DNA from: a virus
Taxonomy: Duplodnaviria > Heunggongvirae > Uroviricota > Caudoviricetes
Length of the DNA stretch: 64,000 bases
Virus record (IMG/VR): IMGVR_UViG_3300028734_000016
Strand: one strand, 5' to 3'
A program made the translations under genes and the position numbers. The notes below the pieces were generated by a model. It was not told the origin of the DNA and did no database searches. It saw only the letters and a program-made list of their open reading frames with translations. This document shows positions 8,146 through 62,960 of this stretch, piece by piece. The first letter of the stretch is position 1. Each line of letters opens with the position of its first letter.

Positions 8146-8249
8146 ATTATTTTTTATTTTATATATAAAAAATTCTATGACAAAAAGAATAAAAATTGAA
8201 CATATTTTTAAATAAATTGTATCATAATGATTAATCATTGAATATATTG

Positions 8250-8337: not shown

Positions 8338-8346
8338 GATTTTTTG

Positions 8347-8433: not shown

Positions 8434-8441
8434 ATATTTTG

Positions 8442-12221: not shown

Positions 12222-12231
12222 TACAAAGATA
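12222..12231 (-). promoter_or_regulatory. TAtcTTTGta box upstream of the SPFH lipoprotein gene
   Basis: ~50 nt upstream of the ATG at 12170. Confidence 0.45.
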
Positions 12232-14010: not shown

Positions 14011-14115
14011 ATTTAATTGTTGAATAACGAATATAAGGAATATATTTCACATAAAAAAATAGTTAGATAAAAATCTAACTATTTTTTTATAAATCTCTAT
14101 TTAATATATTTTTTA

Positions 14116-15427: not shown

Positions 15428-15436
15428 GCAAAGATA
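15428..15436 (-). promoter_or_regulatory. TAtcTTTGc box ~36 nt upstream of the clpP ATG
   Basis: plus-strand GCAAAGATA. Confidence 0.45.
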
Positions 15437-20250: not shown

Positions 20251-20260
20251 TACAAAGATA
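20251..20260 (-). promoter_or_regulatory. TAtcTTTGta box ~33 nt upstream of the ligase ATG
   Basis: plus-strand TACAAAGATA. Confidence 0.45.
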
Positions 20261-20320
20261 AAAAATATATCTTGAATAAAAAAATTATTCAAGATATATT
20301 TATGAAATATATGAAATTTA

Positions 20321-22603: not shown

Positions 22604-22828
22604 TTAATATTCTAGTTTTTCTCTATTATTTTTTAGATATTTATAGATACTTCCGAATATTTTATAAAAACTACCAATTTCACATATTACTTTTCTATTC
22701 TCAATTATCATTTTAACTAACTTAGATTGATTACCTGTCAAATTTTTTATATTTGATTCTTTAACCCAGTTAGAATATATTTCATTATCTTTCATATTCA
22801 AGTATATTATTTCACAAATATACAACAA
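22604..22828 (-). CDS. hypothetical small protein
   Basis: 74-aa ORF. Confidence 0.4.
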   Translation of the reverse strand: MLYICEIIYLNMKDNEIYSNWVKESNIKNLTGNQSKLVKMIIENRKVICEIGSFYKIFGSIYKYLKNNREKLEY

Positions 22829-26450: not shown

Positions 26451-27128
26451 TTATAATTTTAATTTTTTGACTCCTTTTGTTGCTGTTTCTTTAATATGAG
26501 TGAAATTTCGAATATCAATACCAACATCAGAATCAGATGGATCAATATAATATGTGTGTGTTCTGAAATTTACTTTATATAACAAATTTGCTGCAGGATA
26601 AACTTGTAATGATGTTCCAATTACAATAAGAATATCTGCTTCTTTTGTTAATTTTTCAGCTTTACCCATATTTGGTACATCTTCACCGAACCAAACAATA
26701 TGTGGTCGTAATGTATCACCATTTTCATCTACACTATCTGTTTGAATATCAAAGTCTTTTGGCCAATCATAAACAGTATTATTGTTAAATGCTCTCATCT
26801 TTGTTAATTGTCCATGGAGATGTAACACATTTGTACTGCCTGCTCTCTCATGTAAATCGTCCACATTTTGCGTCACTATCTGAACATCATATTTCTGTTC
26901 TAATTCAGCAAGAAAGTAATGTGCAGAATTAGGTTCTACTGTATCTAATTGTTTATGCCTTTCATTGTAAAATTTTAATACCAATTTTCTATCTTTCCTC
27001 CAACCATCAATCGTTGCGACGTCTTTAACATCATATTGCTCCCAAAGTCCGTCAGAATCCCTGAAAGTTTGAATTCCGCTTTCTGCACTTATTCCAGCAC
27101 CAGTAAATACTACTATTTTCTTTTTCAT
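26451..27128 (-). CDS. cobB: Sir2-family NAD-dependent deacylase (CobB-like sirtuin)
   Basis: GAGISAESGIQTFRDSDGLW, QNVDDLHERAG, LHGQ; 225 aa. Confidence 0.85.
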   Translation of the reverse strand: MKKKIVVFTGAGISAESGIQTFRDSDGLWEQYDVKDVATIDGWRKDRKLVLKFYNERHKQLDTVEPNSAHYFLAELEQKYDVQIVTQNVDDLHERAGSTNVLHLHGQLTKMRAFNNNTVYDWPKDFDIQTDSVDENGDTLRPHIVWFGEDVPNMGKAEKLTKEADILIVIGTSLQVYPAANLLYKVNFRTHTYYIDPSDSDVGIDIRNFTHIKETATKGVKKLKL

Positions 27129-29724: not shown

Positions 29725-29734
29725 TACAAAGATA
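29725..29734 (-). promoter_or_regulatory. TAtcTTTGta box ~26 nt upstream of the ATG at 29699
   Basis: plus-strand TACAAAGATA. Confidence 0.45.
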
Positions 29735-31763: not shown

Positions 31764-31767
31764 TAAT

Positions 31768-31799
31768 AAAAAAGATTCATAATTTATGAATCTTTTTTA
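31768..31799. terminator. hairpin AAGATTCATAA-ttt-ATGAATCTT + T6 between convergent genes
   Basis: read directly. Confidence 0.55.
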
Positions 31800-32257
31800 T
31801 TTATATTATAAAGTTTAATTTTTCTTATGAATTTCTTATGATTTTTTGCTGTGACAACAATCATTTTATCATATTTAAATTTTACGCATAGCTTCTTAAT
31901 TTCTTCTCCTTTTATTGAAGTTTCTAAATCAAAATCAAGAAATCCTACAAATTCAACGAATGAGAATTTTTTCAAAAATGTAATGTAATTAATTGTACCA
32001 TCCTTTTTAAAATTTGATATTTCTAAATAATCTAATACAGCATTTTCACTAATCATATTATTTATAAAACTGAAAGGAATCAAATCTTCTTCATAAAGAT
32101 TAAGATTAAAAATCATGATATCATTTTTAATAGAAATACAATTATCACGCATATATGCATCATTGAATTTAACTTCAAATAAACTTTTATAAATAGCATC
32201 AAAATTATAATGATAATGATAATGATAATGATTTCCTGGAAACTGTTGTAATGGCAT
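31784..32257 (-). CDS. hypothetical protein (HYHYHYHY near N-terminus)
   Basis: 157-aa ORF. Confidence 0.5.
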   Translation of the reverse strand: MPLQQFPGNHYHYHYHYNFDAIYKSLFEVKFNDAYMRDNCISIKNDIMIFNLNLYEEDLIPFSFINNMISENAVLDYLEISNFKKDGTINYITFLKKFSFVEFVGFLDFDLETSIKGEEIKKLCVKFKYDKMIVVTAKNHKKFIRKIKLYNINKKDS

Positions 32258-35158: not shown

Positions 35159-35218
35159 TTATATTTGTTATAGTAAAAAAATATAGTAAAAAATATAATA
35201 ATTAAGATTTTTAAATAG

Positions 35219-36070
35219 ATGATTGAAAATGATAAAAGTGATATATTATTTTGTTGGAAAGACGATGATAATATATATGTACAGGTTAATATTCCGTATG
35301 ATGAATTTACGAAAATAAAAAATATGGTTAGTCATTATGTCTACAGAGTATATCAAACACATGGATATAAAAATCCATTATATAGCAATAATATTGAGGA
35401 TAAATTATTAGAAATTGGTGGTTTTTATTATCACACAGAATATATTAATAAATTCACAAATAATAGAAAAGTATATGAGAATATGATGAAGATTAATGAT
35501 ATAAGAGATAAAGAATCATTCATTAGATTTTTAAGATATGGAGAATTATTCAATCAATATCATTATTCTGGTAAAATGTTTTTTAATAATTATCATACTG
35601 TTGAAGAGTGCTCTACAAAAGGAACAAGAGCTGAAATATATGCAAGAGGTAATTTTGAACTGTATATTAATGACAAATGTAAAAAACTAAAAAATATAGA
35701 TGATGAAAAAAACAACATCACAAATCCAAATAAAAACATAACAGATTTGATTAAAGTTAATTTTCCAAAAAATGCAAAAGAAGATTTTAATGGAATAGAT
35801 GGATCATTTACTTTTAATAATCAAATATTTACAGTTCAAGTAAAACCATTTTTACACAAAAAAGAGAATGGTGATAATATTGAAATCAATTCTAATGGAT
35901 CAATGACATTTAATACTCATTATCTGGTATTATACAAAGAGACATGTATTAATAAAAAATTCACATATGATATTATAATACTACAAAATGGATATAATAA
36001 AGATAAAATAAAAATTGATGGTAATAATTATATTACAAATAAAAGAAATCAAGTAAACGAAAAAGAGTAG
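35219..36070 (+). CDS. hypothetical protein
   Basis: 283-aa ORF. Confidence 0.6.
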   Translation: MIENDKSDILFCWKDDDNIYVQVNIPYDEFTKIKNMVSHYVYRVYQTHGYKNPLYSNNIEDKLLEIGGFYYHTEYINKFTNNRKVYENMMKINDIRDKESFIRFLRYGELFNQYHYSGKMFFNNYHTVEECSTKGTRAEIYARGNFELYINDKCKKLKNIDDEKNNITNPNKNITDLIKVNFPKNAKEDFNGIDGSFTFNNQIFTVQVKPFLHKKENGDNIEINSNGSMTFNTHYLVLYKETCINKKFTYDIIILQNGYNKDKIKIDGNNYITNKRNQVNEKE

Positions 36071-36095
36071 ATTTTTAAATCTACTCTTTTTTATT
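36061..36095. terminator. bidirectional hairpin AAAAGAGTAGAT...ATCTACTCTTTT + T-run
   Basis: near-identical copy at 56481-56514. Confidence 0.6.
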
Positions 36096-37500: not shown

Positions 37501-37707
37501 ATGAAAAAAAATGAAAAAGACAATGTATGGAAATTGGTTTGGGATTTTGAAACAAAAGATGTTTTGTTATTAAAACAGATTGAAGGTGAGTTTGAAACAG
37601 TAAATGAGATTTTTGAAACAAAAAATAAAAATGATATTTATGATAAAATATATGAACTTGGTTTAAGATATGATCCTGAACTTCTTGAAGAAGAAGAATG
37701 GATATAA
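37501..37707 (+). CDS. hypothetical small acidic protein
   Basis: 68-aa ORF. Confidence 0.4.
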   Translation: MKKNEKDNVWKLVWDFETKDVLLLKQIEGEFETVNEIFETKNKNDIYDKIYELGLRYDPELLEEEEWI

Positions 37708-37742
37708 AAAAAGAGTCCTGTTTTTACAGGACTCTTTTTTAT
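37706..37742. terminator. hairpin AAAAAAGAGTCCTG-ttttt-CAGGACTCTTTTTT
   Basis: read directly; between convergent genes. Confidence 0.6.
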
Positions 37743-38014
37743 TTAAATGTTAATTTGTCTTTGTTTTTAATTGCTTTATTTAATAGATATTTAACAACAT
37801 CATTAAGTTTAATTTTTTTACTTTTACACATTTCTAAACTTTGGTCAAATGTTTCATTGTCTATATCTAATAGAATGATATTTTTTCCATTATTGTATGT
37901 TTTGATAAATGCTCTCATGACTTCACTCATAGTTTTTCCTTTATTTTCGCACACATCTTGAAATTTTTGATATTCATCATCATCAATTCTCAATTTTAAG
38001 AAAGAATTTTTCAT
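37739..38014 (-). CDS. hypothetical small protein, possibly ribbon-helix-helix-like
   Basis: 91-aa ORF; weak RHH resemblance only. Confidence 0.4.
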   Translation of the reverse strand: MKNSFLKLRIDDDEYQKFQDVCENKGKTMSEVMRAFIKTYNNGKNIILLDIDNETFDQSLEMCKSKKIKLNDVVKYLLNKAIKNKDKLTFK

Positions 38015-38224: not shown

Positions 38225-38695
38225 ATGAAAAATATTAAAACATTTGAAAACTGGAAAGATAATATAATAGATGATAAATTATTTACTAGCGGTAAAGCTA
38301 AATATGATCCAACTGTATTTGGTGGAATTATTAAATATAAGTCAGGAAACGTTGAACCATATTATTTTGCTAGAATACAGAAAAAAGGAGGAATTTTTAT
38401 TTGTAAAATTTTCAAGAAAAATAAAGATGGTGAAAGTATAAGATTGAGAAATAAAAAGAAAGATGATTTGAAATCTGCTCATAATTATGTTAGAGAATTT
38501 ATAAATCAAAGGTTGAAAAGAGATGAAGAAAAAGTAGAAACAAATGACACTTTTTTTGAACCTAAAAAAAGACATCATAATATAGACAATGACAAATTAT
38601 TCACTGATGATTATAGTGATGATAAGCCTATTGATCCTTATATACAACCAATAATAGAGCCACAAAAAAGAAAAACTATCATTAGAAGATTTTAA
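38225..38695 (+). CDS. hypothetical basic protein (MKNIKTFENW start type)
   Basis: 156-aa ORF. Confidence 0.55.
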   Translation: MKNIKTFENWKDNIIDDKLFTSGKAKYDPTVFGGIIKYKSGNVEPYYFARIQKKGGIFICKIFKKNKDGESIRLRNKKKDDLKSAHNYVREFINQRLKRDEEKVETNDTFFEPKKRHHNIDNDKLFTDDYSDDKPIDPYIQPIIEPQKRKTIIRRF

Positions 38696-38784
38696 AAAAA
38701 TTCCTTATATAAAAATATAAGGAATTTTTATTTGAACTTTTTACGTAATTGTTAATATAACAATTATAAAAATAATTTTAAAAA

Positions 38785-39300
38785 ATGAAATACTATGTTG
38801 TAAAAGTTGCCAATGGCAAAGAAAAGAAAGTTAAAGAATCAATTGAAACAGAATTGAAAGTTAATCCGATTGAAAATATAATTTCTAATATATTAGTACC
38901 ATCATCAAAAACACAACAGTTAAGAAATGGTAAAAAAATTAATGTAGAAAAAATAAATATACCTGGATATATTTTTATTGAATGTGAATCAATTGATAAT
39001 GCTGAAGGATATATTAAACATATTAGTGGTGTACAAAGTGTATTAAAAAAACCTTTAAGACAATCTGAAGTCGATAGATTATTAGATAAAAAAACTACTG
39101 AGGAAGTTATTGTAAATGAAAATGCATATTACATTAAAGAAAGAGTAAAAATAATTGATGGACCTTTTAATACATTTAAAGGAGTCATTAAAACATTAGA
39201 CAACTCTAAACAAAAATCTAAAATATCTGTTAATGTATTTGACAGAGAAGTAATTTTAGATTTGACATATTCTCAATTCATAAAAGATATTGAACAATAA
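38785..39300 (+). CDS. NusG/Spt5-like transcription factor (NGN + KOW domains)
   Basis: N-terminal YYVVKVANGKEKKVKESIE (NGN-like), C-terminal IIDGPFNTFKGVIKTLD (KOW). Confidence 0.75.
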   Translation: MKYYVVKVANGKEKKVKESIETELKVNPIENIISNILVPSSKTQQLRNGKKINVEKINIPGYIFIECESIDNAEGYIKHISGVQSVLKKPLRQSEVDRLLDKKTTEEVIVNENAYYIKERVKIIDGPFNTFKGVIKTLDNSKQKSKISVNVFDREVILDLTYSQFIKDIEQ

Positions 39301-39450
39301 TATATTTTTAAATTCATGTTAAGCTTAAAACAAAAAACCTTGAAAAAATTTTCAAGGTTTTTTTATTATAATAAGTGTTAAATAATCTTAATTAAGTTTA
39401 AATGATAATATATTTTATTGATATTGTAAATATATACATCGAAAAAAGTC

Positions 39451-39960
39451 ATGAGAAAATTAAAAACATTCAATGAGAATATTGCTGATAATGTCATACA
39501 AAAGGAATACATATCAACAGATGAATTAGAAGAACAATTAGAATCTATAATTAAATTAAACAATTTTGAAGCTTCTATAAAACTTCTCAGAAGTATAAAA
39601 TCAGATTATCCTTATATAAAAACAGAATCACCATATAAAGAGATATATACATCGTTTTTAAAAAAATGGTATGATAAATTTAAAACAGAATTGGATTTAT
39701 ATGAACCAGAAAATACATTTGAAAAAATCGATTATACAGTAGAGAAAGATTATATATCAATCGTAGAATTGAAATCTATGCTGACTGCAGCATTAAAGCC
39801 TTATAATTTTGAAGCATCAACAAAACTATTTAGAACATTAAGAAATAATTATCCATATATAAAAACATCTCAACCATATAAGGCGTTATATGAGGAGTAT
39901 TTGGAAAAATGGAACAATAAATTCAAAGAAGAAATACAAATTTATGTTCTTGAAAAATAG
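39451..39960 (+). CDS. hypothetical protein with internal duplication (YPYIKT...PYK... x2)
   Basis: two ~75-aa repeats in the translation. Confidence 0.55.
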   Translation: MRKLKTFNENIADNVIQKEYISTDELEEQLESIIKLNNFEASIKLLRSIKSDYPYIKTESPYKEIYTSFLKKWYDKFKTELDLYEPENTFEKIDYTVEKDYISIVELKSMLTAALKPYNFEASTKLFRTLRNNYPYIKTSQPYKALYEEYLEKWNNKFKEEIQIYVLEK

Positions 39961-39965: not shown

Positions 39966-39998
39966 AAAAAAAAGAGAATCATATGATTCTCTTTTTTT
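39966..39998. terminator. hairpin AAGAGAATCAT-atg-ATTCTCTT + T7
   Basis: read directly. Confidence 0.6.
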
Positions 39999-40004: not shown

Positions 40005-41162
40005 TTATTCGTCTATTTTTGTCTTCACATCAGCAAAGTTTAGATAAATTTTTCTATCATCTTTTATTAATGATATGACTTTAACTTTAACTTCATCTCC
40101 GACATTATATTTTTTCTCATTTCTGTTAATATATGCAGTCTGGATTAATCCAGTCGTTTCATCATCTAATGTGATAAGTGCTCCAAAGTTTTTAATATCT
40201 CTAATTTTACCAGTTAATATTTTACCAACTTTAATACTATCCCACATTGATTCTTTTAAAATTTGAGTAAGAATAATTTTATTATTTTTGATAACTTCTT
40301 TGACATAAAACTCAATTGTCATACCAGGCAAAATTTCATTCCATTTATTTTGCCATTTCTCGCCAATATTAGCTTTGTGAACCATACCTGTTAAACAATT
40401 AGGACCATTTTCAGTAGCTTTGAATTGTACAAAAACTCCAAAAGGTGTTGTTCCTGTAATAATTCCTTGATATGTAATATCATGCTTCAATTTTCGTACT
40501 TCATCTGGAATTAATGATTGTAAATATTTCTTTCTTGATACTACATAAACGCCTTTTTCTTGCTGTAATGTTTCTAGCATTACTTCAAATGTCATACCTA
40601 ATATAGATTCAGAATCTGTTAATTTATTTACATCTGCTAACGTATTAGGCATAAATGCTTCAATTCTAACATTATCCATAAGAATATCCATCATATAACC
40701 TGCTGGTATCATTGATTTAACTTCTGAGATAAGTGGTAATCTTTGTTCATAATATTCTTTCATTTTATTATGAACATTTTGCTTAATGAGTTCTGTGATA
40801 GAACCTTTAATTAGGTAAGGTTTTTCTGAAACAGAAGTAATTAACACATCAATTGAATCACCAACCAATAATTCTGTTATAACTGTATTCAATTTTGGTT
40901 TTTCTACGTAGATAAAATCTTTAAATCCAAAATCAATTAAGATTTCTTTTTGACTGATTGATGATATTGTACCAGTAACAACTTGATTTTCTTTAATCTC
41001 TTTTATACCTGATAAAGACATTTCCATCTTTTCATACATATCTCTATATTCTTGATTCAAATCACCAGAACTTTTTACTTTTCTGATTTTATTATTTGTC
41101 AATTCTGGAAATGGATCAGGTAAACTACCGATATTCACACCTACTATTAATTCTGTATTCAT
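40005..41162 (-). CDS. ribosomal protein S1-like protein with ~4 S1 RNA-binding domains
   Basis: S1-type segments VVTGTISSISQKEILIDFGFKDFIYV, GIITGTTPFGVFVQF, ILTGKIRDIKNFGALITL, VGDEVKVKVISL. Confidence 0.75.
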   Translation of the reverse strand: MNTELIVGVNIGSLPDPFPELTNNKIRKVKSSGDLNQEYRDMYEKMEMSLSGIKEIKENQVVTGTISSISQKEILIDFGFKDFIYVEKPKLNTVITELLVGDSIDVLITSVSEKPYLIKGSITELIKQNVHNKMKEYYEQRLPLISEVKSMIPAGYMMDILMDNVRIEAFMPNTLADVNKLTDSESILGMTFEVMLETLQQEKGVYVVSRKKYLQSLIPDEVRKLKHDITYQGIITGTTPFGVFVQFKATENGPNCLTGMVHKANIGEKWQNKWNEILPGMTIEFYVKEVIKNNKIILTQILKESMWDSIKVGKILTGKIRDIKNFGALITLDDETTGLIQTAYINRNEKKYNVGDEVKVKVISLIKDDRKIYLNFADVKTKIDE

Positions 41163-41207
41163 TTTATTTTTTTTTAAAAGTTAATAATTTATTTTGTTTG
41201 TTTGTTT

Positions 41208-41459
41208 TTATTGTATGATATAATTATTAGAAAGTTTATTTATTTCTAATTGATTTATTTTTTTTGCCCTAATTTTTCTGTTTGCATTTTTATAATATTT
41301 ATCGTCATCTTTATAATACATACGAAAAGTTTTTTGATCTAAATATGGAGAACCTTTTAAATATTTTTCATTAAATTCAATAAGATACAATTCATATGAT
41401 ATATTATCAATTTCTGTTGAATTCTCTATATTCCATTTGCCGTTATTTTTAGCTTTCAT
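41208..41459 (-). CDS. hypothetical small protein
   Basis: 83-aa ORF. Confidence 0.4.
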   Translation of the reverse strand: MKAKNNGKWNIENSTEIDNISYELYLIEFNEKYLKGSPYLDQKTFRMYYKDDDKYYKNANRKIRAKKINQLEINKLSNNYIIQ

Positions 41460-41511
41460 AATATAATTATTATGATAGATTATATCAATTTAAAATAAAA
41501 AGTTTAAAATA

Positions 41512-42159
41512 TTAAAATTTATAATTGTTCTGAGGTCTTTTCATTGGTAAAATTTCATTAGTGTGATCCCAAGTTTCAGATGTGAATATATTCTCTTGTT
41601 TATAATCAGGTGTTTCAGTTATATCCCAATAAACATCCATGAAATTAAATTTGAATTGCACTGTGAAAGTTTGTTCAGATACATCCATTGCCTGATACAT
41701 AAATCTAACTTCTGATAATGATTTAAATAGGGCAGTTCTAAATACTACAGAATATAGAAAATCTCCATCCTTATCCAAAATAAATAAATTAATATGAGGT
41801 AAAAAATGTTTTCTAGTATTGTTATAATATTCATTGAATATTTGTTGCATCATAAAATAATTAGAATGTGAATCAACACTTCTAAATGTAATATCCAAAG
41901 TATTATTATATGTATCATAAATATTTGTTGATGGCTTATACTCAAGTTTCTTACCATATTTGAGTACTTGTTCAGATCCTTCATATGTGATACTTGGAAA
42001 CACAATTTCTTTTATTGTAGAGTTAAGGTATGATATTGGATCTAAATATGGTATCCAGTTTTTATGTAAATATTTACTCATTCTATCGTTAACTTCTTTG
42101 GACACAATATCAGTTGGCAATTGAAAAAGTACCTGATTGTTTTGCGAACTTATTCTCAT
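41512..42159 (-). CDS. hypothetical protein
   Basis: 215-aa ORF. Confidence 0.55.
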   Translation of the reverse strand: MRISSQNNQVLFQLPTDIVSKEVNDRMSKYLHKNWIPYLDPISYLNSTIKEIVFPSITYEGSEQVLKYGKKLEYKPSTNIYDTYNNTLDITFRSVDSHSNYFMMQQIFNEYYNNTRKHFLPHINLFILDKDGDFLYSVVFRTALFKSLSEVRFMYQAMDVSEQTFTVQFKFNFMDVYWDITETPDYKQENIFTSETWDHTNEILPMKRPQNNYKF

Positions 42160-42221
42160 ATTTTTATTTCATTTTTTATATAAATTTAAATATAACTATG
42201 ATTTAATTATATATATTTTAT

Positions 42222-43294
42222 GTGTTGTATATTGTATATATAAAAAAACTAATAGTAAAAATGATAAAAGAAAAAATCATAAAAATAAAAATATCGACAA
42301 AAAAAATAAAAATTTATAATGATCTTGGATATAATGTAAATTTTAATGATATATTAGAAATTCCTATTGAACATTTACAAAAAGGATATCAAATAATGAT
42401 AATAGGTATATGTGATTCTTGTGGAAAAGAGAAAAGTATGATGTATAAAACATATTTATATTGCATTAATAATTCATATTTATATTGTCATGAGAATATA
42501 TATTATTGTAAAAAATGCGCTTCAGAAAAAATTAAAAAAATTATGAAGAAAAAATATGGAGTTGAATATGCAATGAAAAGTGAATTATTTAAAAATAAAG
42601 CTAAAACTACATGGTTAAAAAATTTAGGAGTTGATCATCCATCTAAATCGAAAAAAATAAGATCAAAATTTAATAACACCATGATTGAAAGATATGGATG
42701 CAAAAATGCATTAGAAAATACTAAAATAAAAAATAAAATGTTTTTAAAACAATTTAATGATAATAATGGAATGTACTTTGTACAAACTGAATCATTTAAA
42801 GAGAAAAGTAAAATAACATGTTTAGAAAAATATGATGTTGAAAAATATTTACAATCTGAAGATAAAAAAGAAAAAACTAAATCTACATGTTTAATTAAAT
42901 ACGGAGTAAATCATTCGAGTCAATGTACAGAAATTTTAAATAAAATTTTAAATACTTCTAAAAAGATGATAAAATTTAAAGATACCAATTTATTTTATCA
43001 AGGATCATACGAAAAAAATTTTTAGAATTGTGTGAAAAAATAGGAATATTAAGAAATATAAAAAGAGGGTTTTCTATAAAATACAAATTAAATAATGATA
43101 ATTTAATTTATTTTCCAGATTTTTATTTAGAAAAATTAAATATGATAATTGAAATAAAATCATCATATTGGTATAAATTTCATGAAGATAGGAACATAGA
43201 AAAAGAAAAAGAATGTAAAAAATTGGGATATATTTACATTTTAATTGTAAATAAAGATTATTCTGAATTTAATAAAAAAATATTTAATTTATAA
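42222..43294 (+). pseudogene. zinc-finger + repeat + PD-(D/E)xK-like nuclease gene split into two frames (42222-43025, 43028-43294) at an A7 run; frameshifted or slippage-dependent
   Basis: N-terminal CxxC...CxxC, KYGV...H.S repeats, C-terminal FPDFYLEKLNMIIEIKS; frame shift of +1 next to cgAAAAAAAttttTAG. Confidence 0.5.
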
Positions 43295-43685
43295 TTTGTT
43301 TTATTTTATAAAAATTGTTGCTATAATTTGGAGACTCTTCTTCAAAATTCAGAACATTTTTAATATAATTAGCAAATCTATCAGTTAGAACAGATTCAAT
43401 AAAAATGTTTTTATCTGGATATATTTCTTCAAATTTTTTAAGTATTTTAGTAAATAATCCATTATTTGGTTCTGTCACATCTATACTAGCAAAATCAAAA
43501 AAATCATATACATTACCTTTAAATGATCTTTTAGATCTTCTGATATATATACTTATTTCATCATTAGATATCCAAAGATTTCTTGTGTTTGAATCTAAAA
43601 AATTTGATATTTGATTTAATATATCATCTATATCAGATATATCATATTTTTCAAAAGTTTTCAAATAATTCATAGTATATTTCAT
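43284..43685 (-). CDS. hypothetical protein (MKYTMNYLKTFEKY start type)
   Basis: 133-aa ORF. Confidence 0.5.
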   Translation of the reverse strand: MKYTMNYLKTFEKYDISDIDDILNQISNFLDSNTRNLWISNDEISIYIRRSKRSFKGNVYDFFDFASIDVTEPNNGLFTKILKKFEEIYPDKNIFIESVLTDRFANYIKNVLNFEEESPNYSNNFYKIKQIIN

Positions 43686-43688
43686 ATT

Positions 43689-43937
43689 TTATATAGTTGT
43701 TGTTATGCTAGTAGAAGTAATTCCTTCATTTCCATATCTTTTTAATGGTAGAACTTCCAGTTTTAATATATTTGGGTTATTTAACAATGATCTATATTCA
43801 GCTTCAGAAATTTCAGATGCCATTATGACGTTATCCCTAGTAAACACTATAGTACCTCCACTTGATATAATTTCATTTGTTATGTCATCATTATATGTTA
43901 ATCCTTTAAATAGTGAACTTTGTGTTGATGTTGCCAT
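43689..43937 (-). CDS. small protein sharing an N-terminal domain with 43954-45228
   Basis: GGTIVFTRDNVIMASEISEAEY...NPNILKLEVLPLKRYG vs GGTILYSYDNMIIASEITDSFY...NPNIEYIDSLPLKKYG. Confidence 0.5.
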   Translation of the reverse strand: MATSTQSSLFKGLTYNDDITNEIISSGGTIVFTRDNVIMASEISEAEYRSLLNNPNILKLEVLPLKRYGNEGITSTSITTTI

Positions 43938-43953
43938 TTGTTAAGTTGTTATT

Positions 43954-45228
43954 TTATATATTAAAATTCGGAATTGTAATTGTTAAATCTTTAGTTGAAT
44001 CACCAAATGCATTAATGGCTTTTATTTTTATATTTGATATTCCAGGATAATTAGGTGTACCACTTATTATATTACCCAGAAGATTTAATCCGCTAGGCAA
44101 TTTACCTATTATTTTATATGTTGAATTTATATCTGTTGATTCTATTGTGTAATTAAAAGGAAAATAATAACTACCTAAAACAGAACCAGAACTAGTAATA
44201 ATAGGAATGTAGCCAACACCAATAGATAACTGTTTAGAATCAACCCCTGTTATTCCAGATGCTATTAGATTCACAATCGTACTACCTGTTTCAGAACAAA
44301 TTCCATTAATTACTCCAGTTAAATTATTTATACTTAATCCTGATGGTAACGGAGTTGCATCATATGAACTAGGATAACCATTTGATGATATTTGATATGT
44401 AATAGTTGTTCCAAATTTGCTATTAATTACTAAATTTGTATTAGTTATTTTAACATAATCTATGACAGTTAAAACTAAATTTTTTGATGCTGATCCGTAA
44501 TAATTTATTGCACTATATCTAAAATTATATACTCCACTTACAGATGATGTTACTCCACTTATTCTGTTCAAATTTATTCCTACTGTTCCAGTATAATTAC
44601 CTGGAGATATGAGTTCATATTTTATAGGTGAAGTTCCAGTTGCAGTTATAAGATAATCAAATTTACTATTTGTTTCTACACTTAAATCGAAATATTCATT
44701 TGTGATGATAGGATGTATTATTGTTCTAGTTGGAATATTAGAATTTCCTGATACTCCATCTTGTAGTGTAGTGGTAAGTGTATTTAATGTATTTATAGAA
44801 TTCGTGATATCATTGGTATAACCAGTTACATTTATACCAGTTGTGAATACGTTATTATATTTACTACCTGAGCCAGTGATAGTTGATCCGGAATTTGTAA
44901 TCGGGTTAGAACTCAAATTAGAACTATTACCTGTATCAATTTTAATTTGGTTTATTAAGTCATAATTTATATCACCATATTTTTTTAATGGCAAAGAATC
45001 TATATACTCAATATTAGGATTTTTTATTAATTCACTATAGAATGAATCTGTAATTTCAGATGCTATTATCATATTATCATATGAATATAAAATAGTACCT
45101 CCTTGTAAATTTATAATACTCTCAATTGATGAATTATAACTTAATGTTGTACCAGATGACATATTTAATACATTAAGTAAATCAACTTTACCATTTAATA
45201 TTGTTGTAGTTGTAGTTGTAGTTATCAT
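43954..45228 (-). CDS. Ig-like (He_PIG-type) repeat surface/adhesin- or fibre-like protein
   Basis: three LP-x-GL-x(5)-TG-x-I-x-G repeats; S/T/N-rich. Confidence 0.7.
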   Translation of the reverse strand: MITTTTTTTILNGKVDLLNVLNMSSGTTLSYNSSIESIINLQGGTILYSYDNMIIASEITDSFYSELIKNPNIEYIDSLPLKKYGDINYDLINQIKIDTGNSSNLSSNPITNSGSTITGSGSKYNNVFTTGINVTGYTNDITNSINTLNTLTTTLQDGVSGNSNIPTRTIIHPIITNEYFDLSVETNSKFDYLITATGTSPIKYELISPGNYTGTVGINLNRISGVTSSVSGVYNFRYSAINYYGSASKNLVLTVIDYVKITNTNLVINSKFGTTITYQISSNGYPSSYDATPLPSGLSINNLTGVINGICSETGSTIVNLIASGITGVDSKQLSIGVGYIPIITSSGSVLGSYYFPFNYTIESTDINSTYKIIGKLPSGLNLLGNIISGTPNYPGISNIKIKAINAFGDSTKDLTITIPNFNI

Positions 45229-45239
45229 TATTAATTATT

Positions 45240-47126
45240 TTAATTTGATGTAGAAGATGTATCTTTATATTTTGTATAAATAATAACTGTTCTGCCTGCC
45301 ATAGGCCATATAGATTCTGATGATGTAGTAGTGTTAGTAGATGAACTACCTGATGATATAGGAACAGAGCTACTTGAATCAGAAATATAATTTGTATTAT
45401 TATCAACAAATGTTATATCTTCAAATAGTGTAAATGTACCAGAATATAATAATGTTCTTACTTTATCTATTCCAATGACTTGATTAGTGCCATTTGATGA
45501 TTGATTGTTTGATACCAATGTCAAATAAAAATTAGTAAATCCTTTATTGTAAATTGATTTTAATACTGTTAGATCATTTTCTATAATTTTAAAATTCACT
45601 ATACCATTTACATAATCATTTGATGCCTCTTTATATATAGATTTTTCTATGGTTTCTGAATCAGATTTAAATATCAATACCAATTCAGAATTATTTAATA
45701 TAGTAGATAAATCATATATAACTAATTGGTTAGTAGTACCATTTGTTGACTGAAGAGATGCTAATCTAAATTGAATAATATTATCAAATGGTGTGATTAC
45801 GATATTTAATAATCCCATAGTTTTATAATCATTATTAGTCAATGCTGTTGATGAACTATTAGATGAACTATTAACTATTAATTTTCCAACTTCTATTAAT
45901 TGAGGAGAATTAACCTTCACAATTTCAGTTGTTATATTACCAGATAAGTAGTCTTTTCCCAAAACAATTTCATCTGGTTTTGCATTATATATTTTAAGTT
46001 TGTTTAAATTTTGTATATTTAAACTGATTAATTTTTTACCATATTTTTGAATATTGTTATCTAAACCTAATGTAGATGTTCTTTCAATTGTGCTCATATC
46101 TACTAAATCAATAACTCTCATAACAACTCTAATTGCAGCAGTTGTATTTGAGAAAGTTAAAATTGGTCTATATAATATAGTTTTTGTGAAATCATCATTT
46201 GATCCATTACCTGACACAACAACAGTTTGCATATTTGTTTGAATATTTTCTTCTAATAGATAAATATCATATTCAATACGCATTCTACGACCTTTATTTT
46301 CCATTTCTCTTATGAAATTATCCAAATTTTGACTTGAATTACCATATGTTCCTTTAATTTCAAAGAAATCTCCTTCCAATGATTCATTTATATTTACAGC
46401 TAATGTATTGTAATCTGCACTTTTTGAAAATGATGTATTATAAGATTCTGATGAATAAAAATATGTTGTACCAAGAACAGTTTCTTTTGTAACTAAATAT
46501 TTAAAATCCACAAAAATTGGTGATGTTTGACTTAATCCTACACCAAGAGTAAAATTATCATTGATTGTATTATTTGAGACTATATTTTCTTTTAATGAAG
46601 TTATTCTTTGATTAGAAACATAATCAATTGACGGTATTTGAAATTCATAATATTTACCCCATTCTTGTTCATCATACAAAAATGGAATAGATAATGTCAT
46701 ACCTGAAGTTGATTTTGTGGTTGAATCAAAAAATATGTTAGCTAATTCGTACACTTTTTCATTATAATAATCATATGTGTAAATTTTAACATATAATCCA
46801 ACATATCCATTTAAAACAAAATTATAATTAGTTGGTAAATATAACTTAACTTTATCATATGGAATAGGAGCAGTATTATAATCTTGATATTGTAAAAAAT
46901 TATACTTTGATACGTCAATCTGAGTATATTTTCTTAAAACAGTATCTAATAAAAATAAGTTATTATTTGTATTGTTATTATTTGAAGTAGATATAAAACT
47001 TCTTTTTTTATTTTCATTAAGATTTGTTATAACTTTGTAATTTTCTGTCACGTTATTTTCATTATCAAATGTCCATTCCATTAAGACATTTGGATTAATC
47101 TTTATTATTTTCTTAGTACTGGACAT
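45240..47126 (-). CDS. large S/T/N-rich structural-type protein, function unknown
   Basis: 628-aa ORF directly upstream of the Ig-like protein. Confidence 0.65.
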   Translation of the reverse strand: MSSTKKIIKINPNVLMEWTFDNENNVTENYKVITNLNENKKRSFISTSNNNNTNNNLFLLDTVLRKYTQIDVSKYNFLQYQDYNTAPIPYDKVKLYLPTNYNFVLNGYVGLYVKIYTYDYYNEKVYELANIFFDSTTKSTSGMTLSIPFLYDEQEWGKYYEFQIPSIDYVSNQRITSLKENIVSNNTINDNFTLGVGLSQTSPIFVDFKYLVTKETVLGTTYFYSSESYNTSFSKSADYNTLAVNINESLEGDFFEIKGTYGNSSQNLDNFIREMENKGRRMRIEYDIYLLEENIQTNMQTVVVSGNGSNDDFTKTILYRPILTFSNTTAAIRVVMRVIDLVDMSTIERTSTLGLDNNIQKYGKKLISLNIQNLNKLKIYNAKPDEIVLGKDYLSGNITTEIVKVNSPQLIEVGKLIVNSSSNSSSTALTNNDYKTMGLLNIVITPFDNIIQFRLASLQSTNGTTNQLVIYDLSTILNNSELVLIFKSDSETIEKSIYKEASNDYVNGIVNFKIIENDLTVLKSIYNKGFTNFYLTLVSNNQSSNGTNQVIGIDKVRTLLYSGTFTLFEDITFVDNNTNYISDSSSSVPISSGSSSTNTTTSSESIWPMAGRTVIIYTKYKDTSSTSN

Positions 47127-47206
47127 ATTGTCGTTATTGTATTTTTTTCTATATATAAAAAAATAAACTTTGTAATATAAAAATAATAAAAATAATAAAA
47201 ATTTTT

Positions 47207-48539: not shown

Positions 48540-48621
48540 TCTATTAGTCTTAAATAATATTTATAACACTGGCTTGTTATAAAAGAAAATATAACCTAAT
48601 AAGGTTATATTTTCTTTTTAT

Positions 48622-49725: not shown

Positions 49726-49845
49726 ATTTTTTGATATTTTTTTATGATAATTACTTAATAAATGTTAAATATTATATATAAAAAAATCATTTAATTTTTT
49801 AACAAAAAAGCCTCTGATTATCAGAGGCTTTTATCAAAATATATG

Positions 49846-50153: not shown

Positions 50154-52682
50154 TTAAACTTTAGTATTTTCTGTCAATATGTTACCATTCTTAATTTCGT
50201 TATTTGAAATTTTAAAGATTTTAACTGAAGAACTTTCTTTATCATATATCAATGATAATGTATCACCAACTGATATTTCTTGATCAATAATAGCATCAGT
50301 AAGTTTATCTTCAATATTACTCTGAATGACTCTCTTTAATGGTCTTGCACCATAATTTTCATCATAACCATTTTCAAATAAATAATCTTTAAGTGATTGA
50401 GATATAATTACATCATATCCTTTTTCTTTAAGATTTGAAATTAAAGATTTACATTCAACATCAACAATGCTACAAATGTTTTCTTTACTCAAAGAATTGA
50501 AATTGATAACTTCATCTACACGATTTAAAAATTCAGGACTAAAAACTTTTTCTAATTCTTTTTTAAGAACTGAATTTTTAGAGTCTTGATTATTTTTATT
50601 AAGTCCAAATCCAATACCAGTACCAAAATCTTTCAATTTTCGTGAACCAGCATTTGTTGTCATAACAATAATAGTATTTTTAAAATCGACTTTACGTCCA
50701 TTACTATCTGTCAATACACCATCATCCAACACTTGAAGAAGGATATTTTGAACATCAGGGTGAGCTTTTTCAATTTCATCAAGAAGAATAATAGAATAAG
50801 GCTTACGTCTAACTGCTTCAGTTAATTTACCACCATCTTCATATCCAACATATCCAGGAGGTGCTCCTACTAATCTAGATACTGAGAATTTTTCCATAAA
50901 TTCACTCATATCAATTCTAATCATAGCATCTTCAGAACCAAATAACTCCTTTGCCATAATTTTAGCAAGATATGTTTTACCTACTCCAGTAGGTCCTGAG
51001 AAAATAAATGTGCCAACTGGTTTATCATGACTATTTATACCAACTCTTGATCTCTTAACTGATTGAACTATTTTGTCAACTGCTTCATCTTGTCCAATAA
51101 CAATAGTTTTAACTTTATTAGCCATATATTTAAGCTTATTGTTTTCATCAACAGAAACATTATCTACAGGTATTTTTGTTATAAGAGCAACAACTTCAGC
51201 TATATCCTGTTGTGTTACCAAAGGACGATTATCAGAATGTGATTGACTCCATGTTTCTTTTTCAGTTTCAAGTTCAGATTTCCATTGTTTTTCATTATCT
51301 CTATGTTCAGCAGCAATTTCATATTTCTGATTTGAAATACAATCAAGTTTTTCCACAATAGATATTTTTATTTTTTTGCTGAGTTCAACAATTTTTACAG
51401 GAATAGCACTTGTACCATTAACGTGAACCATAGCGCCAGCCTCATCAAGAACATCAATTGCCTTATCTGGAAAGAATTTTTCTGATATATATTTACCAGA
51501 CAAATTAACACAAGCTTCTAATGCATCATCAGTATATGTAACTTTGTGATGATCTTCATATTGTTTTTTTATATTTTTCAGAATTTCTAAAGTTTCTGAC
51601 TTACTGGTTGCCTCAACAACAACTTTCTGAAATCTACGTTCTAATGCAGCATCTTTTTCTACATACTTACGATATTCTTCAAGTGTAGTAGCACCAATAC
51701 ATCTAAATGTACCTCTTGCTAATCCTGGTTTCAACATATTGGAAGCATCGAGTGAACCTTGGGCTGAGCCAGCACCTATAATAGTATGAATTTCATCAAT
51801 AAAAAGAATAATGTCAGGATTTTCTTCCATTTCTTTGACAATACCTCTTAATCTTTGTTCAAATTCACCACGATATTTAGTTCCTGCTACTAAAGAACCC
51901 ATATCAAGAGTAATAATTTTCTTATCCTGTAAATTTTCAGGAACAAGTCCATCTACGATTAACTGAGCCAATCCTTCTACAATAGCAGATTTTCCTACTC
52001 CAGGTTCTCCTACCAAAACAGGATTGTTTTTCTTACGTCTTGATAAAATCTGTGAGATTCTTTTAATTTCATCTGCACGTCCTACTACTGGATCAAGTTT
52101 ACCTTCTTTTGCAAGATTGGTCAGATTTGTACCAAATTGATCAATCAATTTAGTTTTTGATTTGCTCTTTCCTTTTACTTCTTGTTCTTGTTCTTCGTCC
52201 ATGTTACTATTTTCTAATTCATCATTAATATTAAGTTCATCTTCTTCATTTTTTAATTTGTTTTTTAAACTTCTTAAAATTTCAGGTGATTTATTAAATA
52301 AATCTGAAACAAGGTTATTATTATTATCCAATATTGCATAAAAAACATGCTCAATACAAACTTCATCTGAGTCCATTGATTTGGCAAAAACCACAGATTC
52401 TTTTAGAATTTTTTCAGTTTCTAATTCTAATGGAATAGAAGCATTCTTTCTAAGAGAATTCAAACCATTCTGTTTTTGTAAATCTTTAGACCAATCACGA
52501 ATTGTTGATTTGATAGCATTAATATTGAGATTTAAATCTCTCATTATATTAGATGCTTCAGAATATTCCTCATCTATCATTGCTAAGAATAAATGCTCAG
52601 GCCTGATTGTGTTAGATTGAATAATAATTGCAATTCCCTTACTTAGTTTAATAACTTCTTCTACTTCTTTCGAGTAATTCAT
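50154..52682 (-). CDS. clpC: ClpA/ClpC-type AAA+ unfoldase (two Clp_N repeats, D1 and D2 ATPase modules, short middle region, IGF-type ClpP-docking loop)
   Basis: [15 protein letters not shown] + ILFIDEIH (D1); [15 protein letters not shown] + [14 protein letters not shown] (D2); GTGIGFGL loop. Confidence 0.9.
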
Positions 52683-52966: not shown

Positions 52967-53260
52967 TTATTGTTCTATTGTGAGAGATAATCCTTTCTCT
53001 TCTAATAATTTTTTGTAAGGCTCCAATGATTCTTTTGAGCCAGTTTTAATAATATCTTTACCTATAAGATGAACATTATAAGCTGATGCTTGACCTCTTT
53101 CAAATGAAAATTTTAAATATGCCATTAGACAAGTTATTACCCATTCGAATGAATTCACATCATCATTCCACAATATTAATTTATACTCTTCTTCAGTATT
53201 ACTAGAAATACCATTTTCTGATAAAATGTCTTCCAATGATTTTGTTTTTATTTTCTCCAT
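52967..53260 (-). CDS. clpS: ClpS-like N-degron adaptor
   Basis: YKLILWNDDVNSFEWVITCLMAYLKFSFERGQASAYNVHLIGKDII matches the ClpS core. Confidence 0.75.
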   Translation of the reverse strand: MEKIKTKSLEDILSENGISSNTEEEYKLILWNDDVNSFEWVITCLMAYLKFSFERGQASAYNVHLIGKDIIKTGSKESLEPYKKLLEEKGLSLTIEQ

Positions 53261-53468
53261 AACTTATTATATATGTATATACTTTACTATATAGTTTATT
53301 TAATTATCTATTGTAATTGATAGTGCAAATTTACAACATTTTTTCCTAATAACAAAACATTTTATGATATTATTTCAATAATATATTCAATTGTCTGATT
53401 ATAAGTAAAATTTATACTAAATATATCACAATATGAATCACTCATAGTTATATTTACTGCTTGTCCTG

Positions 53469-54010: not shown

Positions 54011-55651
54011 ATGAGTTTAATTTTAAGACAACAAAAAGGAGAAAGATTAACTATAACCGAAATGGACGGTAATTTTTCATATTTAGAATCTCTATCTGGC
54101 ATTTCTCACACATCAGGAACAAATGGAAGTTCAGGAACAAATGGAAGTTCAGGAACAGATGGAACATCAGGAACAGATGGAACATCAGGTACAAATGGAA
54201 GTTCAGGAACAAATGGAAGTTCAGGAACAAATGGATTAAGTGGAGATAAATATACTACATTTTCGAATAATACATTAGAAATATCAACAGGAGGTACAAT
54301 ATCATTTTTTGTTGAGCCTAATTTATCATTATCTACAGGACAAGATATTATAATAACACATGACTCATCAAATTTAATGATAAATTATATATTATCATAT
54401 AATAAAATAACAGGTGAAATATTTTCAAATATTACTTCATCTATTGGTAGCGGAACATATAATTTTTGGAATGTATCATTAAATGGTGCTCCTGGTCCTT
54501 CAGGAATAGATGGAACATCAGGAATAGATGGAACATCAGGAATTTCAGGAACAGATGGAACATCGGGAAGTTCAGGAACAGATGGAACATCAGGAATAGA
54601 TGGAACATCAGGAATAGATGGAACATCAGGAATAGATGGAACATCAGGAATAGATGGAACATCAGGAACGAATGGAACATCAGGAAGTTCAGGAACAGAT
54701 GGAACATCAGGAACGAATGGAACGTCAGGAACAAATGGAACGTCAGGAACAAATGGAACATCAGGAACAAATGGAACATCAGGAAGTTCAGGCACAAATG
54801 GAACATCAGGAACGAATGGAACGTCAGGAACAAATGGAACGTCAGGAACAAATGGAACATCAGGAAGTTCAGGCACAAATGGAACATCAGGAACGAATGG
54901 AACGTCAGGAAGTTCAGGAACCAATGGAACATCAGGAAGTTCAGGAACCAATGGAACATCAGGAAGTTCAGGAACAGTATCATTAAATGGTACAACGAAT
55001 TATGGACTACTTACATTAAATGTATCATCTCCAAATGTAAATGTTGAAAGTGGATTAACATATCATAATTCATTATTAAATTTAAATGGTAATTTAATAT
55101 TACCAAAGTTGTCAGGAACAGGTATAATGATAGACAATACAACACCGACATTTGGATATAAAGATTTAATCGGTCAGATAATACCAAGGGTTGGTGGATC
55201 TACTGCTCCTTCATTATCACCGTTAAGAGGAACTAATATACTTAATTATACATTTCAAGTTAATGATAAGATAGATAATATTACATATCATATGCCACAT
55301 GATTATTTACCAAACTCTGATATATATTTACACACACATTGGAGTCATAATGGTACAGCAATTTCAGGAACATTTGCATTAAACTATTATGTAAATTACA
55401 GTAAAGGTTATAACCAATCAGGACAAACATTCAATTCTGAATTGACTATACCACAAACAATTTCTGTAACAGGAACAACAGATCGTCCAAGATGGGGACA
55501 TTTTATAGATGAAATCAAATTAAGTAATATAGGTGGAGATTCAACTCATTTAAATACATCATTATTAGAAATTGATGGAATTATTGAAATTGCATTAAAT
55601 GTAAATAGTATACCTACTATAACAGGGGTACAACAACTAATCCATTTATAA
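54011..55651 (+). CDS. collagen-like repeat protein (two G-T-S-G-x-x-G blocks) with a non-repetitive C-terminal domain; fibre/fibril candidate
   Basis: 546-aa ORF; preceded by (AAAAAACATT)x3. Confidence 0.8.
   Translation: MSLILRQQKGERLTITEMDGNFSYLESLSGISHTSGTNGSSGTNGSSGTDGTSGTDGTSGTNGSSGTNGSSGTNGLSGDKYTTFSNNTLEISTGGTISFFVEPNLSLSTGQDIIITHDSSNLMINYILSYNKITGEIFSNITSSIGSGTYNFWNVSLNGAPGPSGIDGTSGIDGTSGISGTDGTSGSSGTDGTSGIDGTSGIDGTSGIDGTSGIDGTSGTNGTSGSSGTDGTSGTNGTSGTNGTSGTNGTSGTNGTSGSSGTNGTSGTNGTSGTNGTSGTNGTSGSSGTNGTSGTNGTSGSSGTNGTSGSSGTNGTSGSSGTVSLNGTTNYGLLTLNVSSPNVNVESGLTYHNSLLNLNGNLILPKLSGTGIMIDNTTPTFGYKDLIGQIIPRVGGSTAPSLSPLRGTNILNYTFQVNDKIDNITYHMPHDYLPNSDIYLHTHWSHNGTAISGTFALNYYVNYSKGYNQSGQTFNSELTIPQTISVTGTTDRPRWGHFIDEIKLSNIGGDSTHLNTSLLEIDGIIEIALNVNSIPTITGVQQLIHL
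54470..54970 (+). repeat. coding 9-nt G-x-x collagen-like repeat block (second block; first at ~54100-54240)
   Basis: antisense ORFs 54385-55047 are repeat artefacts. Confidence 0.8.
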
Positions 55652-55734
55652 TAATGATTGATATACATTATCAAAGTAATGGTATATTAGGAACAAAAAA
55701 TAAAAACTATCCATTTTATATATAATTTTTAAAA

Positions 55735-60273: not shown

Positions 60274-60442
60274 ATATTTATCTAATATTATTTTATTTTA
60301 TTTTTAAGTTTATATTTTTACAAATATAATGAATTTATTTCATAAATCAAAATATTTATAGTTTAACTTTATTTTATATGATCAAAAACATTAATTGTTT
60401 TATAATATATAATAAATTATTAAAAAATAAACAATAAAAACT

Positions 60443-62952: not shown

Positions 62953-62960
62953 TATCTTTG
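62953..62960 (+). promoter_or_regulatory. plus-strand TATCTTTG box ~30 nt upstream of the ATG at 62990
   Basis: TTTTTTGTATCTTTGCG. Confidence 0.45.

Follow-up and report, generated by a model that had tools for sequence, protein, structure and literature searches.

A compact, diverged NusG encoded in a huge AT-rich phage genome and its proposed role as a genome-wide transcription factor

NusG is a universally conserved transcription factor, and its housekeeping form (TIGR00922) consists of an NGN domain, a linker and a KOW domain. In Escherichia coli, loop I164-F165-G166 of NusG contacts Rho (PMC7593976). In Bacillus subtilis, residues Y77, N81 and T82 of NusG elicit pausing by reading a TTNTTT motif on the non-template strand (PMC8060035). 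NusG paralogues are also found outside the housekeeping context. RfaH of E. coli excludes NusG and blocks Rho, while UpxY belongs to the capsule operons of Bacteroides and LoaP to Firmicutes. Among phages, a supplementary GenBank file to Al-Shayeb et al. (2020) contains one huge-phage gene with an automatic NusG annotation, which the text of that paper does not discuss (PMC7162821). No paper analysing a phage-encoded NusG was found in the searchable literature on NusG with megaphage, huge or jumbo phages. The gene considered here is such a phage nusG, located at positions 38785-39300 on the plus strand of a 64,000-nucleotide stretch (the window) of the caudoviricete record IMGVR_UViG_3300028734_000016.

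The open reading frame (ORF) at 38785-39300, as given in the ORF list, runs from ATG to TAA and codes for 171 amino acids. It is a genuine full-length NusG of the order NGN-linker-KOW, and the NGN and KOW segments named in the original prediction were recovered by profile searches, matches to structures, a structural model and a search with that model. The Pfam NusG/NGN model (PF02357) matched residues 1-99 with an E-value of 1.7e-12 (48.1 bits, cut-off 22.2). The Pfam KOW model alone gave a weak match to residues 119-145 (E 0.041; 14.2 bits, below the cut-off of 22.3). NusG chains in the PDB aligned end to end with the protein (B. subtilis 8ehq_G, 9.7e-21; E. coli 2jvv_A, 4.3e-17), and KOW-only chains matched as well (6duq_M, 5.5e-7). 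An AlphaFold2 model was built from a 49-sequence alignment, with a mean predicted local distance difference test score (pLDDT) of 83 and a predicted template modelling score of 0.51. It consists of an alpha/beta NGN domain (residues 1-99), a disordered linker (residues 103-111, pLDDT <50) and a predicted C-terminal five-strand KOW beta-barrel (residues 120-167, pLDDT 86-93). In a Foldseek search with this model, NusG chains ranked first (9a56_B, 6.6e-17), and the NGN domain superimposed on 8ehq_G with a root-mean-square deviation of 2.1 A. The NGN domain is placed at 38785-39081 (+; residues 1-99) from Pfam, the secondary structure of the model and the column comparison described below. The shortened interdomain linker, which is predicted to be disordered from its pLDDT, spans 39082-39138 (+; residues ~100-118). 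The KOW beta-barrel spans 39139-39285 (+; residues ~119-167), as delimited by the modelled strands, the KOW-only chains and the loop statistics.

Among the NCBIfam models, the nusG model TIGR00922 was aligned over positions 1-169 of its 172 (109.5 bits, E 1.5e-31), short of its equivalog cut-off of 135.7 bits. The models of LoaP (NF033641), UpxY (NF033644), RfaH (TIGR01955) and archaeal Spt5 (TIGR00405) gave 79.8, 39.2, 31.3 and 30.2 bits against cut-offs of 125, 100, 144.5 and 69.95 respectively. The protein appears to be a general NusG rather than a specialised paralogue, because the nusG model outscores those of LoaP, UpxY and RfaH; for UpxY and LoaP this classification is one of NCBIfam scores and not of reference sequences of either family. 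The specialised UpxY, RfaH or LoaP type that had been proposed is thus not borne out. PHROG 6386 ('transcription antiterminator', a function known from annotation only) also matched the protein over profile positions 14-175 of 179 (E 4.8e-21; 76.3 bits).

The window is huge-phage DNA and not part of a bacterial chromosome, since it carries phage hallmarks, lacks secE, rplK and rplA, and has a NusG with no bacterial copy above 42% identity. Its G + C content is 23% overall and 20-30% throughout. Its genes include those for a T4 gp9/10-like baseplate protein, an NAD-dependent ligase, LAGLIDADG and GIY-YIG homing endonucleases, a thymidine kinase (TK), DUF1599, DUF7487 and NT5C. A megablast search with 24 kb of the window against phage records gave no match. 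Nine contigs, of up to 711,471 bp, carry a NusG protein identical to that of the window, and about 50 further clusters at the 90% identity level were found in metagenomes (49-99% identity, 162-173 amino acids), some on contigs of 400-531 kb. Ten loci in IMG/VR belong to this clade. Neither at the window nusG nor in any clade locus was secE, rplK or rplA found nearby, as anticipated for a gene outside the secE-nusG-rplK context. The window NusG is therefore a real, conserved and phage-encoded member of the NusG family, of a derived, compact type.

The derived character of the phage protein was seen in a comparison of alignment columns between 50 members of the phage clade and 80 NusGs of Bacteroidota. 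The phage proteins are shorter (median 167 versus 183 amino acids). They have no N-terminal extension and lack part of the linker, including the conserved VDELAE segment of Bacteroidota. They also lack the loop of 6-9 residues after beta-4 of the NGN domain that is present in NusG of Bacteroidota, E. coli and B. subtilis. The universal NGN signature is kept (W/Y-Y-V, G-x-E-x-K and PGY at 60-62 followed by x3-E66). The residues retained in the phage NGN are W/Y-Y-V, G-K-E-K-K, P39, K42, Q45, R47, G49-K-K, P60-G-Y, E66, E95 and R98. Similarly, the phage KOW domain retains V-K-I-I-D-G-P-F-x-x-F-x-G-x-I, K142, K144, K146, F152, R154, L160 and Q164, among which G126-P-F128-x-x-F131-x-G133, F152 and R154 are conserved KOW residues. 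About 15 positions are fixed differently from Bacteroidota, including A8V, I24L, K54V, L64F, A67C, L69S, G85S, F86I/V and G88K in the NGN domain and V123I, N139D, K155E and E159D in the KOW region.

The loop equivalent to the Rho contact of E. coli NusG is relaxed in the phage clade. It reads I-F-G-R-[K/R] in 79 of the 80 Bacteroidota sequences and [I/V]-F-[G/D/E]-R-E in the phage clade, where the third position is G in 28 of 50 members and D or E in the other 22. In the window it is V151-F152-D153, followed by R154-E155, so that the neighbouring K/R is charge-reversed to E. The ratio of non-synonymous to synonymous substitution was 0.075 and 0.115 for nusG against relatives of 90% and 83% identity, which indicates that this fast-evolving gene is under purifying selection and hence functional.

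In a scan of one genome per GTDB species with the window NusG, 529 relatives were retrieved. The best 80 of the 529 were all housekeeping NusGs of Bacteroidota (Flavobacteriales, Crocinitomicaceae, Cryomorphaceae, Bacteroidales and Sphingobacteriales), the maximum identity was 42%, and no close copy was present in these bacterial genomes. The gene is therefore not the host's own housekeeping copy, which the original prediction had considered as a sign of a chromosomal fragment, and it lies on a mobile element. Aligned identity to the window NusG was 39-46% for NusG of Bacteroidota, 32% for B. subtilis NusG, 26% for E. coli NusG and 20% for E. coli RfaH. A neighbour-joining tree with RfaH as outgroup was used solely to show that the clade is separate and not to name its sister group. 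Of the phylogenetic check that had been suggested, this covers the separateness of the clade. Support was weak, the clade bipartition being recovered in 29 of 60 bootstraps, and RfaH attached to the phage clade by long-branch attraction.

The window nusG is monocistronic, to judge from predicted terminators that insulate it on both sides. Upstream, between orf156 and nusG, an A-tract/T-tract hairpin with a 15 bp stem was found at 38696-38729 by a hairpin scan (-14.5 kcal/mol, z -5.1). Directly 3' of nusG, a terminator-like hairpin with a 14 bp stem and a T-run lies at 39332-39363 (-14.3 kcal/mol, z -5.0), and five of eight relatives (L005, L015, L018, L020 and L021) have a counterpart of it after nusG. 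A third hairpin, at 39967-39998, lies between orf169 and the convergent S1 gene. These sites were located with a custom hairpin scan, since a stock terminator scan that demands at least three G-C pairs gave three sites only. Across the window there are about 15 perfect hairpins of 12-18 bp, each placed between an A-tract and a T-tract and all of them intergenic (for example 110-148, 3173-3208, 14051-14090, 20263-20301 and 31765-31801, and also 36060-36091, 37707-37740, 48581-48618 and 49806-49832). They look like bidirectional intrinsic terminators with A-U pairs at the base of the stem.

Every related locus of the clade that was examined keeps the same gene order. It runs TK(-), Arc/RelB-like(-), orf156(+), NusG(+), convergent S1(-), orf215(-), orf82(-), orf424(-), orf628(-), orf241(+), DUF1599(+) and ClpB(-), and extends unchanged to relatives with no more than 50-55% NusG identity (L005, 531 kb; L007/L022, 501 kb; L009). 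The S1-domain gene reported in the original prediction is indeed present at 40005-41162 (-), coding for a bS1-like protein of 385 amino acids with four S1 domains (Pfam S1, 5.6e-22). It scores 105-116 bits with rpsA models over the N-terminal four of their six S1 domains, and shows the highest conservation within the block (71-96% identity across the clade). The S1 gene and the genes for large proteins (41512-47126) together occupy 40005-47126 on the minus strand and are transcribed towards nusG, so this block does not follow nusG in any transcriptional sense.

The leader and candidate promoter region of nusG (38730-38784, +) is A-rich and has no Shine-Dalgarno sequence. It is overlapped by TTTATTTG (38727-38734), which differs at one position from the Bacteroidota -7 pattern TAnnTTTG, and contains TTATAAAAATAAT at 38764-38776; the relative L020 has TATCTTTG at an equivalent distance from nusG. 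In the window as a whole, a sigma-70 promoter scan was uninformative (131 sites versus 126.6 expected). The whole Bacteroidota -33/-7 pattern was not significantly enriched (10 versus 5.9 +/- 2.3), nor was TTTGGTARAT. Only the octamer TATCTTTG, which, like TAnnTTTG, we take to be the Bacteroidota -7 element, shows clear and correctly oriented intergenic placement. Six of its eight copies lie between genes, in a window that is only 10% intergenic, and five stand in the proper orientation at 28-54 nt before a gene start. TAnnTTTG sites in general (mostly TATCTTTG, some with TTTGGTAAAT upstream) precede the SPFH, ClpP, NAD-ligase, SbcCD-like and other genes and the tRNA cluster by 28-66 nt. In the motif scan they were located at 12224-12231(-), 15429-15436(-), 20253-20260(-), 29727-29734(-) and 62953-62960(+), and also at 22815-22822(-), 35160-35167(+), 53326-53333(-), 60321-60328(-) and 8740-8771(-). 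This placement suggests transcription by host sigma-A and a Bacteroidota host.

A second upstream motif, TTTTATATATA(A), occurs in 10 copies, eight of them intergenic and all eight oriented to the downstream gene. Its sites include 2441-2449(-), 2737-2745(-), 3429-3437(-) and 42235-42243(+), as well as 47150-47158(+), 49772-49780(-) and 55717-55725(+), and TTTTTTTATATATAG, of the same motif class, lies upstream of orf628. It is a candidate for a phage-specific promoter class, perhaps middle or late.

Shine-Dalgarno sequences (GGAG, GAGG or AGGA at -20 to -4) precede 2 of 101 ORFs (5.0 +/- 2.2 in random 20-mers), and the leaders of the 101 predicted genes are 59% A and 4.7% G. Such leaders would fit S1-dependent initiation without Shine-Dalgarno sequences, as in Bacteroidota. 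Al-Shayeb et al. (2020) reported that huge phages with a possible rpS1 rarely have Shine-Dalgarno sequences, and that the predicted hosts of those over 634 kb are Bacteroidetes (PMC7162821). The host of the present phage is probably a member of Bacteroidota as well, because the best bacterial matches of its NusG are from this phylum, -7 motifs are present and Shine-Dalgarno sequences are missing.

The best explanation of these results, to which we give about an even chance as a whole, is that a housekeeping NusG of Bacteroidota type gave rise to the phage NusG long ago, and that the gene is kept as a conserved single-gene unit throughout a clade of AT-rich phages of very large size. The protein would act in trans and genome-wide on the host RNA polymerase, with poor recruitment of Rho. 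The protein would be made as a free factor, and a trans-acting role is favoured because terminators lie on both sides of the gene and its neighbours are convergent. A free, genome-wide NusG is suggested by the intact NGN signature, the predicted beta-barrel KOW with its flexible linker, the monocistronic gene and the nusG-type profile. The NGN domain would bind host RNA polymerase at the usual site of host NusG, in competition with the latter, and would keep elongation processive across a phage genome of 77% A + T. Host RNA polymerase is the most economical target, because promoters are of host type and a Pfam scan of 50 window ORFs, which include nearly all those of at least 140 amino acids, gave no polymerase or sigma gene. 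The hydrophobic G-P-F..F..G / F-R face of the KOW domain would be retained for partners such as ribosomal protein S10. The relaxed Rho-contact loop (Gly to Asp/Glu, next Lys/Arg to Glu) would recruit Rho poorly and so shield the C-poor phage transcripts from NusG/Rho silencing. Coupling to ribosomes, themselves remodelled by the phage S1, would still be allowed. The action would extend over the genome and not be confined to one operon.

Several points weigh against this explanation. The loop glycine is kept in 28 of the 50 clade members and the equivalents of F165 and R167 are invariant, so that Rho binding may be retained by the phage NusG. The case for binding to host RNA polymerase is one of homology. 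The remaining ~650 kb of the ~0.7 Mb genome may code for a phage RNA polymerase or other Nus factors. The upstream regions of nusG in eight relatives share only AT-rich strings resembling TATAAA(A)ATA, which allow no promoter class to be assigned. In addition, the neighbour-joining tree names no sister group, and the assignment of the host is circumstantial.

A distinctly less probable, though still serious, explanation is that the phage copy simply adds to the supply of an essential factor while phage transcription is massive, and works just as host NusG does, also in stimulating Rho and in coupling to ribosomes. Huge phages do likewise with tRNAs, S1 and translation factors (such repertoires are described in Al-Shayeb et al., 2020; PMC7162821), and the window has bS1-like, tRNA and Clp genes typical of supplementation of host functions. 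Such a role would also agree with housekeeping nusG as the best family match and with the conserved core signature residues of NGN and KOW. However, a supplement is not expected to be at most 42% identical to any bacterial NusG, to fall short of the equivalog cut-off, or to carry clade-fixed deletions and changes at positions invariant in Bacteroidota (F to I/V at 86; K/R to E by the Rho loop). The clade NusG also diverges faster than its neighbours in the same loci, with 50-55% identity as against 71-77% for S1, 70-72% for orf215 and 65-73% for ClpB. Specialisation is preferred over mere dosage because of this strong divergence, the clade-fixed surface changes and the relaxed Rho loop.

The same changes could be carried further, in an unlikely but far-reaching version. 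Here the phage NusG would be a dedicated hijacker that displaces host NusG from the RNA polymerase of Bacteroidota, has lost productive Rho recruitment through its acidic, relaxed Rho-contact loop and couples the polymerase, via its S10-binding face, to ribosomes carrying phage S1. If so, the phage would possess a transcription-translation machine of its own, and an AT-rich, C-poor genome of 0.7 Mb would be immune to xenogene silencing by NusG/Rho. This would amount to functional convergence with RfaH, but genome-wide and with no recruitment site needed.

We consider it improbable that the protein serves as cofactor to a multisubunit RNA polymerase of the phage itself, encoded in another part of the ~0.7 Mb genome. 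Some jumbo phages encode their own RNA polymerases, as annotated phage beta' matches indicate, and fast evolution with altered NGN surface residues could reflect a partner other than the host enzyme. Against this stand the host-type -7 motifs before several phage genes and the lack of any polymerase or sigma gene among the 50 ORFs scanned. In a tblastn search of phage records, E. coli beta' brought up mostly bacterial contamination, and its matches speak neither for nor against a polymerase of their own in NusG-bearing huge phages. We know of no case in which a phage multisubunit RNA polymerase uses NusG.

About equally improbable is the role originally proposed, that of an operon-specific UpxY/LoaP/RfaH-type antiterminator for the adjacent S1 gene and a late or structural block. 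NusG and the S1/orf215/orf628 block are neighbours throughout the clade, but the block is convergent on the opposite strand and nusG stands alone between terminators, and operon-specific control of late genes is therefore unsupported. The UpxY, LoaP and RfaH models are far below their cut-offs and below nusG, and the KOW domain is predicted as a beta-barrel instead of an autoinhibitory helical hairpin. The 'structural-looking' proteins of the block matched no Pfam, PHROG or NCBIfam family, so that the link to late-gene processivity also finds no support. A search for ops-like recruitment motifs found none in any leader of the window. The ops consensus of E. coli, GGCGGTAGTGTG, occurs in exact form only once, at 15086-15097 (-), where ~0.002 are expected from base composition; this copy lies inside the ClpP coding sequence, encodes G-G-S-V of a TGGGSV segment and was rejected as a coding coincidence.

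More doubtful still is a B. subtilis-type helper of pausing and termination at the phage hairpins with weak A-U stem bases. In the ~15 intergenic hairpins, pairing between A-tract and T-tract lengthens the stem, and it is exactly such terminators that B. subtilis NusG stimulates (PMC8060035). However, Y77, N81 and T82, which elicit pausing in that NusG, are replaced; their equivalents are H-N-I in Bacteroidota, x-H-I/V in the phage clade and G75, H79 and I80 in the window. Finally, a host chromosomal fragment or assembly contaminant with a housekeeping nusG can be set aside, because the window has phage hallmarks, no ribosomal-protein context and no bacterial copy above 42% identity, and independent assemblies from many samples show this locus with its phage gene order, although several 'phage' records with NusG are bacterial contamination of just this kind.

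Database records of this sort that resemble bacterial DNA are MW495066.1 (L154), CAKLQF020000005.1, CAKLQH020000005.1, OR84xxxx and MT836236.1. The MaAM05 record has secE-nusG-rplK-rplA plus metabolic genes and is bacterial. The rpoC of 'Acinetobacter phage MD-2021a' shares 72% identity with that of E. coli, and for the rpoC of 'phage' contigs labelled as Staphylococcus, Enterococcus and Listeria the identity is 50-63%.

Close to nusG, three small genes are of note. Orf156 (38225-38695, +) belongs to no family, has a basic C-terminus and is conserved (52-88% identity) in the closest relatives, where it likewise precedes nusG on the same strand. An Arc/RelB-like ribbon-helix-helix protein of 91 amino acids (37739-38014, -) is conserved just upstream of orf156/nusG. 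Either of these could be regulatory. Orf169 (39451-39960, +) contains an internal duplication, N-F-E-A-S-x-K-L-x-R-x-x-x-x-x-Y-P-Y-I-K-T...P-Y-K-x-x-Y, present twice, and is limited to the closest relatives of the window, being found in L013 and absent from L015 and more distant loci.

Elsewhere, the window codes for a Clp set consisting of ClpP (14636-15391, -; 184.9 bits), a ClpS adaptor (52967-53260, -) and a ClpB/ClpA-like double-AAA ATPase (50154-52682, -) that scores 858 bits to ClpB, below the cut-off; the ClpB-ClpS adjacency is kept in the 531 kb relative. Four tRNA-Leu genes (CAA, TAG, TAA and TAA) lie within 6973-8521 (-). Among them is a LAGLIDADG/HTH homing-endonuclease-like ORF (7048-8295), whose 5' end overlaps tRNA-Leu(TAG) at 8249-8337. 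Other genes code for an SbcD(Mre11)-SbcC/Rad50-like fusion of 1251 amino acids (56518-60273, -), the gp9/10-like baseplate protein with a collagen repeat (145-1956, -), a collagen-repeat protein of 546 amino acids (54011-55651, +), a Sir2 homologue (26451-27128, -) and an ankyrin-repeat protein (4393-4860, +).

Among known systems, housekeeping NusG, especially that of Bacteroidota, is closest to the phage NusG. The two have the same architecture and length class and the motifs PGY, E66, G-P-F-x-x-F-x-G and F-x-R in common, and the best profile and PDB matches are to this type. In contrast to housekeeping NusG, the phage copy is monocistronic, lies outside secE-nusG-rplK and scores below the equivalog cut-off. 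It is also compact, with ~15 positions fixed differently and a relaxed Rho loop next to a charge-reversed residue. RfaH resembles the phage protein in the principle proposed here, occupation of the NusG site without activation of Rho, and the equivalent of NusG G166 is not glycine in either RfaH or the window NusG. The phage protein differs from RfaH in its profile score (31.3 bits, cut-off 144.5) and sequence (20% identity), in having no ops site in any leader, in its KOW domain, predicted as a beta-barrel and not a helical autoinhibitory hairpin, and in retaining the F165 and R167 equivalents. UpxY and LoaP are likewise NusG paralogues outside the housekeeping context, UpxY in the same host phylum. 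They head or adjoin a co-directional target operon, whereas the phage nusG is insulated by terminators and has convergent neighbours.

Other huge phages, LR745206 and LR756501-4 (634-735 kb, AT-rich and predicted to infect Bacteroidetes), also have a full-length NusG outside a ribosomal-protein context. Their proteins are 31-39% identical to the window NusG, with no shared gene order. They are of host-like length (178-186 amino acids) and mostly have a host-like FGRKTPVE loop (FQRQTPVE in LR756504). By this comparison the NusG of the window clade is the more derived form. Full-length NusG was also observed in about 30 other large AT-rich viral contigs (loci L023-L050 and L151-L153; 166-735 kb, 23-35% GC), with 29-39% identity to the window NusG and no gene order in common with the clade; these proteins, too, are of host-like length, and most have an FGRKTP loop like that of the host. 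Of all viral loci, only L039 has a secE match beside nusG, and rplK/rplA was found in none. NusG thus seems to recur in huge phages and was possibly acquired more than once.

The lambda N complex (PMC7819879) and Xp10 p7 (PMC4513864) serve the same goal of processive, termination-resistant phage transcription. Those small, unrelated proteins reprogramme host factors, whereas the phage of the window has a universal factor of its own. The annotation of this factor is solid, and the mechanism proposed for it, reasoned from sequence, is a reasonable one. Carrying a diverged copy of the one universally conserved transcription factor is a strategy distinct from the small accessory proteins, directed at host NusG, Rho or RNA polymerase, with which phages are known to alter elongation. 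If polymerase binding has been uncoupled from Rho activation, the phage NusG would offer a natural test of which surfaces of NusG are important, and the proposed mechanism, if true, would help to explain how AT-rich genomes of 0.5-0.7 Mb are transcribed inside a Bacteroidota cell.

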